Below are positions 14,533-21,269 of a stretch of 64,000 bases of DNA, piece by piece. The DNA is from Bacilli bacterium. GTDB taxonomy: Bacteria > Bacillota_I > Bacilli_A > RFN20 > CAG-826. Below the pieces are notes generated by a model. The model ran no database searches. It worked only from the letters and a program-made list of their open reading frames with translations, and was not told the origin of the DNA. The stretch is from NCBI GenBank assembly GCA_045597865.1, contig JAZLKX010000052.1, positions 43,017 through 107,016 on the forward strand, in the 5' to 3' direction. The position numbers and the translations under genes were made by a program. Position 1 is the first letter of the stretch. Each line of letters starts with the position of its first letter.

Positions 14533-15783
14533 ATGGAAATTCTCACAAAAGAGTTCACCGAACATTATCCGCAGATTATCACCCATCGTACTGACACTGA
14601 CTTCTATAAGTACACGATGCAGTATGTGATTTGGCGTATGTGTCCGTCTATCAAGTCGCACTGGAAGTTCAAGGTTCGCTCTGCTCATGCAAAGACTGCA
14701 TGGCTTACTGATGAAATCAATTATCAGCTTGACCGTGTAGCTGAACTGATGCACACCCAGGAAGAACTTGACTTCCTCGGCAACATTCCGTGGTTCACTC
14801 CTGAATTTATTGAACATCTTGAAGATCACCGCCTCAAGCGTAAGTATATCCGCTGCTGGGCGGATCTTGAAAAGGATGAAGTTTGTATTGAAGCAGAAGG
14901 TCCGGAATTGAATGTTCAGTGGTGGGAAATCTATGTTCTTGAAATCGTTCAGGAACTTTGGATGAGCAAGGCACCTCGTGATTATGACTGGGCCGATAAG
15001 GAACTGACGAAGACCATTGAAACTTACAATGCTCTTTATGAAAAGAAGCCTTTCACCCTTGCAGATTTTGGCTGCCGTCGCCGTGACTCTAAGAATTGGC
15101 AAGCACATGTGATTGAACGCTTGATGCGTGAATGCAAGGCTTTCGTTGGAACCTCCAATGTTTACTTCGCAATGAAGTACGGTATCAAGCCGATTGGTAC
15201 TTATGCACATCAGATGGAAGCTCTTACCCAGGGACTTGATGACGTGCCTTTGGCAAAGTCTCAGGAAACTGTTTGGGAATGGTGGACAAAGGTCTATCGC
15301 GGAAACTTGGGTATTGCTTTGTCTGACAACTTTGGCTTCAAGGCATTCCTCCGCAACTTTGACCTTTACTACAAGAAGTTGTTTGACGGTTGCCGTCACG
15401 ACTCTGGTAACCCGTTCACTTGGGGCGACATGCTTATTGACGCCTATAAGGCAGATAAGATTGACCCGCTGACAAAGACAGGTGTCTGGTCCGACGGCCT
15501 TGACCGTAATGATGTGGTTAAGATTGTTGACTACTTCTATGGCCGCATTAAGGTTTCCATTGGCCAGGGCGGCTACTTGATGTCCAGAACTATTCCGCCT
15601 ACTTACGAAGTTCAGCCGCTTAAGATGGTTATGAAGGTGATTGAAGTAAACGGTAAGCCGGTTGTCAAGCTTTCCGATGAACCGGGCAAGACGATGTGCG
15701 AAGATCAGTCCTTCGTTGATTACGCAAAGAAGGTCTATAAGTATGAACCGTTGACCGTAGAACACTACGACCACGAGATTTAA
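14533..15783 (+). CDS. pncB: Nicotinate phosphoribosyltransferase
   Basis: Collinear with E. coli PncB as I recall it: TDFYKYTM, ADFGCRRR, VGTSN, GTYAHQ, GIALSD, RHDSGNP, KLSDEPGKT. Confidence 0.9.
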   Translation: MEILTKEFTEHYPQIITHRTDTDFYKYTMQYVIWRMCPSIKSHWKFKVRSAHAKTAWLTDEINYQLDRVAELMHTQEELDFLGNIPWFTPEFIEHLEDHRLKRKYIRCWADLEKDEVCIEAEGPELNVQWWEIYVLEIVQELWMSKAPRDYDWADKELTKTIETYNALYEKKPFTLADFGCRRRDSKNWQAHVIERLMRECKAFVGTSNVYFAMKYGIKPIGTYAHQMEALTQGLDDVPLAKSQETVWEWWTKVYRGNLGIALSDNFGFKAFLRNFDLYYKKLFDGCRHDSGNPFTWGDMLIDAYKADKIDPLTKTGVWSDGLDRNDVVKIVDYFYGRIKVSIGQGGYLMSRTIPPTYEVQPLKMVMKVIEVNGKPVVKLSDEPGKTMCEDQSFVDYAKKVYKYEPLTVEHYDHEI

Positions 15784-15795
15784 ACTGGAGTCTCT

Positions 15796-16014
15796 ATGAA
15801 ACATTTGAAAGTATTGTGCCTATACTTCTTCATCTGTGCTTTAAATGCAGCGATGAGCGTAGCAACGGTGCCAGCATGGGCAATGCTAATTTTATCAGCG
15901 TTGTTCTACTGTACTATATGGGATCTATGCTCATATATGTTTACTGGCACTATGTGTTGGTATGATTTTGTGAAACAGATTGTCAAAAAGTTAAAACCCA
16001 AGGAGAAACCATGA
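15796..16014 (+). CDS. Small membrane protein
   Basis: Two hydrophobic helices, Cys-rich. Confidence 0.5.
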   Translation: MKHLKVLCLYFFICALNAAMSVATVPAWAMLILSALFYCTIWDLCSYMFTGTMCWYDFVKQIVKKLKPKEKP

Positions 16015-16132
16015 TTGACGAAAACCTTCATCCTAGCTATGCTTTAAAGCGACGGATTAAAGAACATACTGACAAGGATTTGGTTGACTTCTAATCAGTG
16101 GATTAAATCATTTTAAATTTGGGTGGGCACTA

Positions 16133-16190
16133 TTTACAGCCTACCCATTCTTTTTTATATTTTACTCGTAATCAAAAACAATAACTAAAA
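16133..16190 (+). promoter_or_regulatory. Class-I promoter P3 plus leader
   Basis: TTTACAG-N16-TATATTTTACTCGTAATCAAAAACAATAAC. The -35 element sits in the loop of hairpin gggtggg/cctaccc. Confidence 0.7.
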
Positions 16191-16202
16191 GGAAACTTAA
16201 AT

Positions 16203-19458: not shown

Positions 19459-19602
19459 ATGAAAAACATCAAGGTTGAACTGAAACATGGCCTCTTTGAG
19501 GTTACTTATTCTGAAGCCGGCCAGGTGAAACATTTCACAACAAAAACCATACAAGAAGCTTTTATTGAGCTTCTAAACTTAGAGGAGAAATCTAATGTTT
19601 AA
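19459..19602 (+). CDS. Small hypothetical protein (47 aa)
   Basis: ATG lies after ggaagg; overlaps the next start by 8 nt; below the track cutoff. Confidence 0.4.
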   Translation: MKNIKVELKHGLFEVTYSEAGQVKHFTTKTIQEAFIELLNLEEKSNV

Positions 19603-19798
19603 GATTAAACTCGCAGCTGGCGCCAGCGTCGTTGCCATCATTCTGACCGTTATTTTCTGCCTTTGCTTGCAGGTCGCTATTATCAGCGGCGCAACTTGGC
19701 TTTGCTGCTACCTTCTTGGCCATGCATTCACATGGCAGCTTGCAGCAGTAGCAAACATCATTTATCTGATCCTTCCTAAGGGAAACTCCTCTAAGTAA
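19595..19798 (+). CDS. Small membrane protein (2 TM)
   Basis: Hydrophobic throughout. Confidence 0.5.
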   Translation: MFKIKLAAGASVVAIILTVIFCLCLQVAIISGATWLCCYLLGHAFTWQLAAVANIIYLILPKGNSSK

Positions 19799-19819
19799 TC
19801 AAAAAAGGAAAATCAAAAT

Positions 19820-20401
19820 ATGGCTAAGAAACTTCTCATTGTCATTGACGCTCAGGTGGATTTTATTGACGGTGCTCTTGCCAATCCGATGGCTCAGGCA
19901 GCAGTACCGGCACTTGTTGAACTGATTAAGAATCACGAAGGTGATGTAATCGCCACCCACGATACACACTTTAATGAAGTTCAGTGTTCCGCTGCATGGC
20001 CGCCTATCAATGGCGCTCAGGCTTATGAAAAGACCCTTGAAGGCCAGAAATTGCCAGTTCCACACTGCATCAAGTTGTCTGAAGGCTGGGAACTGAATAA
20101 GGAAGTTCGTGAAGCTTGTACCGCAAAGGACAATGAACCGCCTAAGAATTTCTTCTGCATTGACAAGTACACCTTCGGCTGGGACGGCTGGGAAAAGTAC
20201 CTCAAGGCATTCCGTTTTGACGAAATTGTTCTTGCTGGTTTCTGCACCGACATCTGCGTTGTTTCCAATGCGCTGATTCTTCGTTCTATCTTCCCTAACA
20301 TGAAGATCACTGTTGTGGAAAAGGCTTGTGCAGGCGTCACTAAGGAATCTCATGACGCTGCTATCTTGACCATGAAGATGTGCCAGATTGATGTGGAGTA
20401 A
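19820..20401 (+). CDS. pncA: Nicotinamidase (isochorismatase-family cysteine hydrolase)
   Basis: LLIVIDAQVDFIDGAL and the catalytic-Cys motif GFCTDICV. Its position inside the NAD cluster supports the nicotinamidase assignment. Confidence 0.7.
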   Translation: MAKKLLIVIDAQVDFIDGALANPMAQAAVPALVELIKNHEGDVIATHDTHFNEVQCSAAWPPINGAQAYEKTLEGQKLPVPHCIKLSEGWELNKEVREACTAKDNEPPKNFFCIDKYTFGWDGWEKYLKAFRFDEIVLAGFCTDICVVSNALILRSIFPNMKITVVEKACAGVTKESHDAAILTMKMCQIDVE

Positions 20402-20477
20402 CAAAATGAACGAAAACATCCCAAGATCTGGACAGTTTATCGGCGGACCTGTAAAGCTCTAAAAAGGAAAATTGAAT

Positions 20478-21269
20478 ATGATGAAACTTACACAAGATTG
20501 TGTTGAATGGATTAAGTCCCTCGGAATTAAGCAGGCCGTGATTGGCATTTCCGGCGGTAAGGATTCCTCTGTCTGCGCTGCACTTTGCGTCGCAGCACTT
20601 GGCAAGGAAAACGTTTTGGGCGTTATGATGCCTAACGGCGTTCAGAAGGATATTGCGGATTCTCAAAAGCTCTGTGCCCACCTTGGCATCAAGAACATGA
20701 CAGTTAACATCGGCGGTGCCTTTGACGCATTGCTTAATGCAATAGCTCCGCGTGATGAAATTTCCTATGATACCATCACAAACTTGCCGGCACGCTTGCG
20801 TATGTCTACATTATACGCCGTTGCACAAACATACGGCGGCTGGGTTGCTAATACATGTAATCTTTCCGAAGATACCGTTGGGTATGCAACTTTGTACGGT
20901 GACTCCGCTGGATCTTTTGCTCCGTTGTCCAAATTGACAACTGAAGAAATCATGGAAATTGGCGATGATCTTGGCTTGCCAACTGAGCTTGTTCACAAGA
21001 CACCTATTGATGGCCTTCAGCCTAAGACAGATGAAGATAAGCTTGGTTTCACCTATCACGAAGTAAATGAACTTATTCGTTTCGCAAAGATGGGTCCTAA
21101 CTTTGAAAAGATCATGCAGATGTACAAGACCAACAAGTTCAAGACTGATATCATTCAGATCCCGGCATTTGACCCGCAGCGCTTGAATCATATTCCCGTC
21201 ATTGCGGAAGGAATCCTTGTCCCTAAGGATGGATTTTTCGCCGTAGCAGGAAAAACAGAAAATGGCTAG
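20478..21269 (+). CDS. nadE: NH3-dependent NAD+ synthetase
   Basis: PP-loop GISGGKDSS; the LYGD motif is also present. Confidence 0.85.
   Translation: MMKLTQDCVEWIKSLGIKQAVIGISGGKDSSVCAALCVAALGKENVLGVMMPNGVQKDIADSQKLCAHLGIKNMTVNIGGAFDALLNAIAPRDEISYDTITNLPARLRMSTLYAVAQTYGGWVANTCNLSEDTVGYATLYGDSAGSFAPLSKLTTEEIMEIGDDLGLPTELVHKTPIDGLQPKTDEDKLGFTYHEVNELIRFAKMGPNFEKIMQMYKTNKFKTDIIQIPAFDPQRLNHIPVIAEGILVPKDGFFAVAGKTENG

Follow-up and report, generated by a model that had tools for sequence, protein, structure and literature searches.

Genes for a predicted deamidated route from nicotinamide to NAD+, including a NadD::Nudix fusion, in a phage genome fragment

Here we report a block of genes for a predicted route from nicotinamide to nicotinamide adenine dinucleotide (NAD+), which lies on a phage-like stretch of contig JAZLKX010000052.1 (64 kb; hereafter the window, meaning the whole stretch of DNA that was analysed). 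The NAD+ block (positions 14473-21269) encodes a PncA-type nicotinamidase, a nicotinate phosphoribosyltransferase (PncB), an NH3-dependent NAD+ synthetase (NadE) and a fusion of a NadD-type adenylyltransferase domain with a Nudix domain (NadD::Nudix). All open reading frames (ORFs) of the block are co-directional on the forward strand (Table 1). A preliminary description of the same DNA had placed the four enzyme ORFs at exactly the positions found here, and all motifs that it quoted were recovered: GTAADPITKAH and the Nudix box in the fusion, IDAQVDF and GFCTDICV in PncA, and GISGGKDSS in NadE.

Gene content of the NAD+ block

The window has a phage-type gene content, including a T4-like PolB, a UvsX-like recombinase, an Rnl1-like ligase, an SLT lysozyme and an ATP-dependent DNA ligase. 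ORFans are numerous, and nearly all ORFs lie on one strand. PolB, UvsX, Rnl1, the co-directional ORFans and the relatives on viral contigs described below argue against a bacterial origin of the locus, which was rejected. No close relative of the window was found among deposited phages; a megablast search with the block as query found no match among 50,697 phage records, and an exact-protein look-up of PncB returned no entry on record. A tRNA scan of the window found none, and a search of Rfam at gathering thresholds detected no riboswitch or other RNA.

The chemistry of the four enzyme families is well established: PncA deamidates nicotinamide, PncB combines nicotinate with phosphoribosyl pyrophosphate (PRPP) to give nicotinate mononucleotide (NaMN), NadD adenylylates NaMN to nicotinate adenine dinucleotide (NaAD), and NadE amidates NaAD with ATP and NH3. 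The PncB of the window matches the NCBIfam model NF003704 from end to end, with 412.3 bits against a cut-off of 379 and with residues 11-405 aligned to profile positions 5-392 of 398, and also exceeds the cut-off of TIGR01514 (326.7 bits, cut-off 269.55). Residues 14-405 align with PncB of P. aeruginosa (PDB 1yir, 3.7e-73). In this alignment His226 of the sequence GTYAHQ lines up with GTMAHE of 1yir, within the motif GT-x-AH-E/Q, the histidine of which is the autophosphorylated residue of enteric PncB. NadE scores 157.3 bits against TIGR00552 (cut-off 63.65), carries an SGGKDS PP-loop at residue 25 and an NAD_synthase domain at residues 10-217, and has no glutaminase domain. Its eight best PDB matches are all NH3-dependent synthetases (2e18 at 7.7e-34, 3p52, 3fiu at 3e-26 and five more). 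An in-frame TTG at position 20472 is an alternative start of this gene.

In the NadD::Nudix fusion, GTAADPITKAH occupies residues 6-16, SSSKVR begins at residue 161, and the Nudix box begins at residue 260. The (H/T)xxH and ISSTxxR-type motifs of NadD enzymes are represented by T13...H16 and by S161, S162 and R166, respectively, and G6, D10, P11, H16, S161, S162 and R166 are invariant in the family. The N-terminal domain was missed in a PDB search with the single sequence, and a profile of 20 sequences was needed. This profile aligned at positions 3-199 with the full length of NadD structures (5llt at 5.9e-12, 2h29 at 3e-10, 1kam and 3dv2), whereas NadM-Nudix chains matched it only from position ~144 onward, in the Nudix half. 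The single-domain Foldseek matches were likewise NadD structures, with a TM score of 0.73-0.79 for the target. By profile and predicted fold, the adenylyltransferase domain is of the NadD type and not of the NadM type found in phage KVP40 and in the NAD+ reconstitution pathway NARP2. Of the "NMNAT-Nudix fusion" named in the preliminary description, the fusion stands, and an assignment to the KVP40/NadM type does not. The NadD typing argues against an identity with the KVP40-type protein NatV; the two proteins have a parallel architecture with unrelated adenylyltransferase domains. The NadD typing strengthens the deamidated reading of the pathway and fits a route via NaMN and NaAD.

The Nudix half of the fusion has retained the catalytic residues R276, E277, E280 and E281 (R-E-x2-E-E), which are invariant in 20 homologues. 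Its best relatives in the PDB are 2fml, the NadM-Nudix proteins 2qjo and 2qjt, and the Nudix domain of NrtR (3gz8). With the specificity read from the relatives 2qjo and 3gz8 only, the domain most likely splits ADP-ribose (ADPR).

The PncA assignment, the weakest link of the pathway, holds on residues and fold. The protein belongs to the Pfam family Isochorismatase (75.6 bits, cut-off 27). In an alignment of 30 homologues, six residues (D10, D48, H50, H82, K103, K116) never vary, and C146 of the D-I-C-V motif hardly does. The residues D48, H50 and H82 line up with D52, H54 and H71 of PncA from P. horikoshii (1ilw) and with the equivalent motifs of 2wt9; in the alignments, K103 and K116 are both candidates for the catalytic lysine. 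The combination of Asp/Lys/Cys with an Asp-x-His...His metal site is the hallmark of nicotinamidases within the isochorismatase superfamily, with residue roles known from PhPncA, AbPncA and MtPncA. The best PDB matches of a PncA profile were 1ilw (7.5e-12), 2h0r, 3s2s, 2wt9 and 3pl1, and nearly all sequence matches in the PDB were characterised nicotinamidases. An AlphaFold (AF2) model of the protein reached a pLDDT of 95.2, and its top 17 Foldseek matches were all characterised nicotinamidases (TM 0.68-0.80, normalised to the query), with biuret, triuret and carbamoylsarcosine amidases ranking lower. Judged by metal site, catalytic residues and predicted fold, the isochorismatase-family protein is most likely a nicotinamidase.

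Table 1. Features of the NAD+ block and of related loci. Positions refer to the window unless a locus or record is named.
Feature	Position	Strand	Remark
PncB, nicotinate phosphoribosyltransferase (nicotinate + PRPP + ATP -> NaMN)	14533-15783	+	416 aa; NCBIfam profiles
RNA ligase	16203-17435	+	Between PncB and adenylyltransferase-Nudix fusion
Conserved 122-aa ORF	17892-18260	+	Candidate accessory partner; abuts NadD::Nudix start
Adenylyltransferase-Nudix fusion ORF	18261-19346	+	361 aa; CTP_transf_like and NUDIX above Pfam cut-offs
NadD-type NaMN adenylyltransferase domain (NaMN + ATP -> NaAD)	18261-18872	+	Profile, fold, motifs
Nudix domain, predicted ADPR pyrophosphatase (ADPR -> AMP + ribose-5-phosphate)	18933-19346	+	PF00293, 59.7 bits
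PncA-type nicotinamidase (nicotinamide + H2O -> nicotinate + NH3)	19820-20401	+	193 aa; residues, profile, AF2/Foldseek
NadE, NH3-dependent NAD+ synthetase (NaAD + ATP + NH3 -> NAD+)	20478-21269	+	263 aa; TIGR00552
Five small hydrophobic ORFs	15796, 17662, 19595, 21262, 21547		Hydropathy
Copies of promoter-like element	11253, 14500, 16160, 19414, 35587, 41417	+	All within first 42 kb
P2 (TTTACA-17 nt-TAAATT, then leader TTTTACTCGTAAACAAAAA)	14473-14520	+	12 nt before PncB start codon
P3 (TTTACA-17 nt-TATATT and leader)	16133-16180	+	Heads RNA ligase ... NadD::Nudix group
P4 (TTTACA-17 nt-TATATT and leader)	19387-19434	+	Heads two small ORFs, PncA, NadE
Divergent PncB copies	L002:6705-7949, L006:16144-17367, L007:6259-7482, L012:11182-12435		33-35% identity to PncB of the window
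Butyrivibrio operon nrtR (Nudix + NrtR winged helix)-pncA-nadD-pncB-nadE	L101:7848-11914		SVGC01000007.1
Phass-1 cluster nicotinamidase-Prs-phosphoribosyltransferase-NadE	OQ749652 (L085), record 96860-101298		NadE is WIC39685, annotated 'hypothetical protein'

Conservation of the gene set and of a promoter-like element

Homologues of the fusion comprise 727 metagenomic sequences, and a scan of IMG/VR with an alignment of NadD::Nudix yielded 124 relatives (loci carry the prefix L below); a scan of IMG/VR with the single PncB sequence confirmed nothing. For the N-terminal domain of the fusion, no homologue could be detected in any phage in INPHARED. A set of 185,579 species-representative genomes yielded a single contig with the fusion in full length, which also carries phage RNA and DNA ligases, so that the fusion is essentially restricted to viruses. 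The contigs of the relatives span 20 kb to 415 kb, and the closest ones, L001 and L002, are syntenic with the window.

A survey of related phages for the same block had been suggested in the preliminary description, and it located PncB, PncA and NadE all within +/-10 kb of the fusion in 16 of the 28 loci with a full-length fusion. The gene order is variable, and the identity of NadD::Nudix falls to 34%. The four genes are contiguous as NadD::Nudix-PncB-PncA-NadE in L015 and L026 and as PncB-NadD::Nudix-PncA-NadE in L020, L021, L023, L024 and L025, on contigs of 180-260 kb. PncB is 82% identical to that of the window in L001 and 44-52% identical in remote jumbo contigs, and only 33-35% identical in L002, L006, L007 and L012, despite a DNA ligase that is 70-92% identical there. 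In some close relatives PncB has apparently been swapped for a distant homologue (xenologous replacement) while the pathway was kept. This indicates that the four-gene set is selected as a unit, even through the replacement of one of its genes.

The ORF of 122 aa that precedes the fusion is part of this pattern. It lies directly upstream of NadD::Nudix in L001, L002, L003, L006 and L007 and 1.8-4.5 kb upstream of it in L004, L017-L019 and L022, with identities of 33-45%. It has no match in Pfam, PHROG or the PDB. The encoded protein is a candidate accessory factor of the NAD+ cassette. An RNA ligase and five small membrane ORFs, seen by the preliminary description as interleaved with the enzymes, are indeed present, but they are not a conserved part of the cassette. 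The RNA ligase is missing near the cassette in L002, L008-L011, L015 and L020-L026; of the small hydrophobic ORFs, three are unmatched in every relative and two recur in the nearest ones only. As they are not conserved with the cassette, both were rejected as members of the pathway.

The block is also marked by a repeated element. The core 12-mer TTTTACTCGTAA occurs on the forward strand in five exact copies and in one copy with one mismatch, against 0.47 expected by chance. The full element of ~45 nt has the form (C)TATTTACAG-N17-TATATT-TTACTCGTAATCAAAAAC and is present in six copies on the forward strand of the window, three of which each head one gene group of the NAD+ block (P2, P3 and P4 in Table 1). 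Its geometry is sigma-70-like (TTTACA, 17 nt, TATATT). Diverged but recognisable equivalents were read directly at the P2, P3 and P4 positions of L001, and the exact 12-mer is found in none of 166 loci. Of the "class-I promoters" of the preliminary description, the repeated element is real, and from its form we infer promoter function and hence expression by the host polymerase, which would place the block among the early genes.

Proposed role and rival explanations

Taken together, the four enzymes would lead from nicotinamide via nicotinate, NaMN and NaAD to NAD+, as the preliminary description had proposed. This reading agrees with family profiles, residues, fold and the conservation of the set as a unit, and it has good support from sequence, structure prediction and comparative genomics. 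Transcription of the cassette would start at three copies of a single promoter class of host type (sigma-70-like). PncA would deamidate nicotinamide to nicotinate with release of NH3, PncB would convert nicotinate and PRPP to NaMN, the NadD-type domain would adenylylate NaMN to NaAD, and the NH3-dependent NadE would convert NaAD to NAD+, for which the ammonia released by PncA could in principle be used. The Nudix domain would split ADPR into AMP and ribose-5-phosphate, and the latter would be returned to PRPP by the PRPP synthetase of the host. In tblastn searches, Prs-like and Nampt-like probes (the Nampt-like probe from Phass-1) matched nothing in the window or in L001-L026; with no PRPP synthetase in the window or near the cassette in relatives, PRPP must come from the host. 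The net result would be that nicotinamide and ADPR, the two products of NADases, are both returned towards NAD+, which would be kept available during infection. The selective driver would be the buffering of NAD+ depletion by TIR-, SIR2- and SEFIR-type defences of the host.

We consider it fairly probable that the block is a phage-carried pathway of deamidated nicotinamide salvage with sigma-70-like promoters, which feeds both NADase products back and likely buffers the NAD+ depletion caused by NADase defences; a role in counter-defence is a plausible, testable hypothesis. Several points weigh against this. The PncA candidate scores 41.7 bits against the PncA equivalog model NF008623, far under the cut-off of 174, and the NadD domain scores 64.5 bits against TIGR00482, under the equivalog cut-off of 112.45, so that the specificity of both rests on residues and fold. 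Compared with the Nudix box consensus used (G-x5-E-x7-R-E-U-x-E-E-x-G-U), Asp takes the first acidic position and is separated from R-E by one additional residue, and the nearest structural relatives of the domain include the non-catalytic regulators NrtR and AraR. No PRPP synthetase lies near the cassette, unlike in Phass-1, and the deamidated route costs more ATP than the Nampt-based NARP2. Many hosts own these four enzymes already, so that the cassette may simply raise the flux, and a general metabolic boost fits the same data.

Such a boost is the substance of one rival explanation, in which the genes are general auxiliary metabolism that supplies NAD+ to a large phage, in a niacin-dependent gut or rumen host or in one that lacks the route, with no link to NADase defence. 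It would agree with the ordinary bacterial operon nrtR-pncA-nadD-pncB-nadE of a Butyrivibrio metagenome-assembled genome (MAG), which the cassette mirrors, with the presence of NadE alone in many cyanophages and pelagiphages, and with the frequent complementarity of phage and host NAD+ pathways noted for gut jumbo phages in a recent survey (PMC11662467). However, a NadD that is fused to an ADPR-type Nudix domain, together with PncA, suits exactly the two products of NADases, the DNA ligase of the phage is ATP-dependent, and neither an NAD+-dependent ligase nor another recognisable NAD+ consumer was found among the scanned ORFs of at least 200 aa (the Pfam scan of the window covered 36 ORFs, of which several large ones, including one of 1718 aa, had no family match). 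These observations are not decisive, but they tilt the balance towards immune NAD+ buffering, and we regard the purely metabolic explanation as rather unlikely.

The remaining alternatives concern single steps of the pathway and are all improbable. The Nudix domain might be an ADPR sensor that regulates the fused adenylyltransferase, in the way that NrtR senses ADPR, instead of a recycling hydrolase. The unusual spacing within the first part of the Nudix box would suit a sensor, as would the relationship to the ADPR-bound Nudix domain of NrtR (3gz8), AraR (5bs6) and 2fml; the invariance of R-E-x2-E-E in 20 homologues and the good alignment with the active NadM-Nudix ADPR pyrophosphatase 2qjo argue for hydrolysis, which leaves the sensor little probability. 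About as improbable, or slightly more so, is a Francisella-like order of reactions, in which NadE amidates NaMN to nicotinamide mononucleotide (NMN), from which the adenylyltransferase would make NAD+. Among the best matches of NadE is the Francisella enzyme 3fiu, presumably an NMN synthetase, and with the whole fusion protein as query Foldseek returned NadM-Nudix proteins of Francisella and Synechocystis. But the top NadE matches 2e18 and 3p52 are ordinary NaAD-amidating enzymes, and profile and fold place the adenylyltransferase domain with NadD, a family that generally prefers NaMN. It is very improbable that the isochorismatase-family protein is something other than a nicotinamidase, in which case the phage route would begin at nicotinate and not at the NADase product nicotinamide. 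The family is broad, as the amidases lower in the Foldseek list illustrate, and the score far under the NCBIfam equivalog cut-off would be in keeping with another substrate; the conserved metal ligands D48, H50 and H82 with Asp/Lys/Cys, the characterised nicotinamidases at the top of the structure and sequence matches, and the association of the protein with PncB and NadE in many loci all speak for nicotinamidase.

Neighbouring genes and comparison with known systems

Downstream of the NAD+ block, positions 22666-25450 (+) encode a vWA-type protein with DUF2828/DUF7788 (phrog_850, 'RNA-binding protein') and, after it, an AAA/STAND-like ATPase. Both are conserved downstream of the block in L001; L006 and L012 have just the DUF2828 protein, and L002 and L007 just the ATPase. 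The two genes possibly form a module for RNA repair or of a Ro-like kind. At 36151-39838 (+), two calcineurin-like metallophosphoesterases (36151-36927 and 37236-38099) adjoin a T4 Rnl1-like RNA ligase (38660-39838), the second RNA ligase of the window, which suggests tRNA repair against anticodon nucleases. The position of the NAD+ block among genes of RNA-repair type (RNA ligases, metallophosphoesterases, DUF2828/vWA) is only suggestive. The helicase C-terminal ORF at 1483-2385 (+) opens with an intein fragment (Intein_splicing, residues 2-35), and the first 2 kb are low in G + C; this suggests a helicase gene that is interrupted by an intein and whose first part lies outside the window. At 27329-28947 (+), genes for a glycosyltransferase of family 2 and a polysaccharide pyruvyl transferase lie in a low-GC patch (28-30 kb, G + C content 0.30), together with one of the few long ORFs on the minus strand (28936-29568); recent acquisition of a module for sugar modification is possible. 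Positions 50232-52570 (+), immediately before the PolB gene, encode a homologue of ribulose-phosphate 3-epimerase and then a nucleotidyltransferase of 552 aa, for which pentose-phosphate supply and nucleotide-sugar or DNA modification are possibilities. The host is hinted at only weakly, by the binning of a related fragment with a Succinivibrionaceae MAG, by ribosome-binding sites of the form AAGGA, by the sigma-70-like promoter and by a PncB that is closest to gammaproteobacterial enzymes.

Gut jumbo phages provide a published parallel. A total of 174 of 668 such phages encode complete salvage or Preiss-Handler pathways, a pncB-nadD-nadE cluster is named in Kuafu_71, and phage pncA is mentioned in the discussion only (PMC11662467, Microbiome 2024). 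Counter-defence against Sir2-type NAD+ depletion was already proposed there, as 'needing experimental verification'. The view of the preliminary description that a deamidated route would be a new wiring for a phage was overstated in the light of these clusters and of the nicotinamidase of Phass-1; a further pathway, NARP3, also exists. The window resembles the jumbo phages in the clustering of pncB, nadD and nadE (here within 6.7 kb and in a phage-like context), in relatives from gut- and rumen-type metagenomes, here on viral contigs of 180-415 kb, and in the role proposed. It differs in that their route is defined from nicotinate and that, in the available part of the article, neither a NadD::Nudix fusion nor the 122-aa ORF is described (PMC11662467). 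A genome of more than 200 kb and a place in the Kuafu/Houyi clades would define that group; the present phage is known from 64 kb only, and its Shine-Dalgarno sites and sigma-70-like promoters are not Bacteroidota-like in appearance.

The Phass-1 (OQ749652) / MT835544 cassette of a deposited gut phage likewise joins an annotated nicotinamidase and a homologue of NadE, each 41% identical to its counterpart in the window, but it combines these with a Nampt-like (class II) phosphoribosyltransferase and a PRPP synthetase of its own, and no NadD::Nudix homologue was detected in the two stretches examined. By its gene content, the Phass-1 cluster is a second architecture of the deamidated route in phages. 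In huge phages such as LR756501 and Phosso, PncB and NadE are adjacent. The Butyrivibrio operon shares the same four enzymes, clustered with an ADPR-binding-type Nudix protein; in the operon the Nudix domain is fused to a winged helix and forms a repressor, whereas in the phage it is fused to NadD, has kept its catalytic residues and lacks the winged helix. The phage cassette is likely to have evolved from such a source as the Butyrivibrio operon.

A survey of viral NAD+ systems from 2022 listed NadV, NadM and NadR only (PMC9503650), and no PncA, PncB or NadE is involved in NARP1 and NARP2 (bioRxiv 10.1101/2024.02.11.579819) or in NARP3 (PMC13464706). NARP2, with Nampt and a NadM-type NMNAT-Nudix protein, counters NAD+ depletion, as shown by experiment. 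Like the NadV-NatV system of KVP40, it resembles the window in leading from nicotinamide to NAD+ and in a fusion protein whose adenylyltransferase precedes a Nudix domain of the ADPR type. It is however a two-step amidated route via NMN, whereas the window would use four steps via nicotinate, NaMN and NaAD with a NadD-type enzyme. The hallmark of NARP2, Nampt/NadV, was not found in the window with the Nampt-like probe of Phass-1, and the phosphoribosyltransferase present is PncB by curated models. NARP1 (Adps and Namat) and NARP3 (PnuC and NadR) also rebuild NAD+ after NADase action, the former by pyrophosphorylation of ADPR and the latter by import of nicotinamide riboside. At the level of tblastn, PRPS-like and Nampt-like probes for NARP1 had no match in the window, and the Pfam domains of PnuC and NadR occur in none of the 36 ORFs scanned, with many other small ORFs outside that scan.

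The literature searched contained neither a 'NARP4' nor an experimental test of a phage Preiss-Handler (deamidated) route. Less described so far are the explicit entry step by PncA, the virus-restricted NadD::Nudix fusion and the conserved 122-aa partner ORF. It is possible, although we would put it at somewhat less than an even chance, that the NadD::Nudix fusion and its 122-aa partner mark a fourth, mechanistically distinct phage NAD+ reconstitution pathway (a deamidated 'NARP4'), which would recycle both NADase products and allow escape from Thoeris, DSR and SIR2-HerA. Such a pathway would need neither Nampt nor ADPR pyrophosphate and might withstand host measures directed against NARP1 or NARP2. 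If NAD+ were restored in defended cells, a fourth pathway would join the counter-defence repertoire of phages, the nicotinamidase and NadE genes of gut and rumen phages would have an explanation, and phages could be engineered with its parts to attack hosts armed with NADases; if it were not, the cassette would be an ordinary auxiliary metabolic module. NARP1, NARP2 and NARP3 have been shown by experiment, whereas the deamidated route has so far only been noted in metagenomic surveys, and the present locus and its relatives offer a compact, testable version of it, with four enzymes, a fused ADPR-handling domain and a conserved partner protein.

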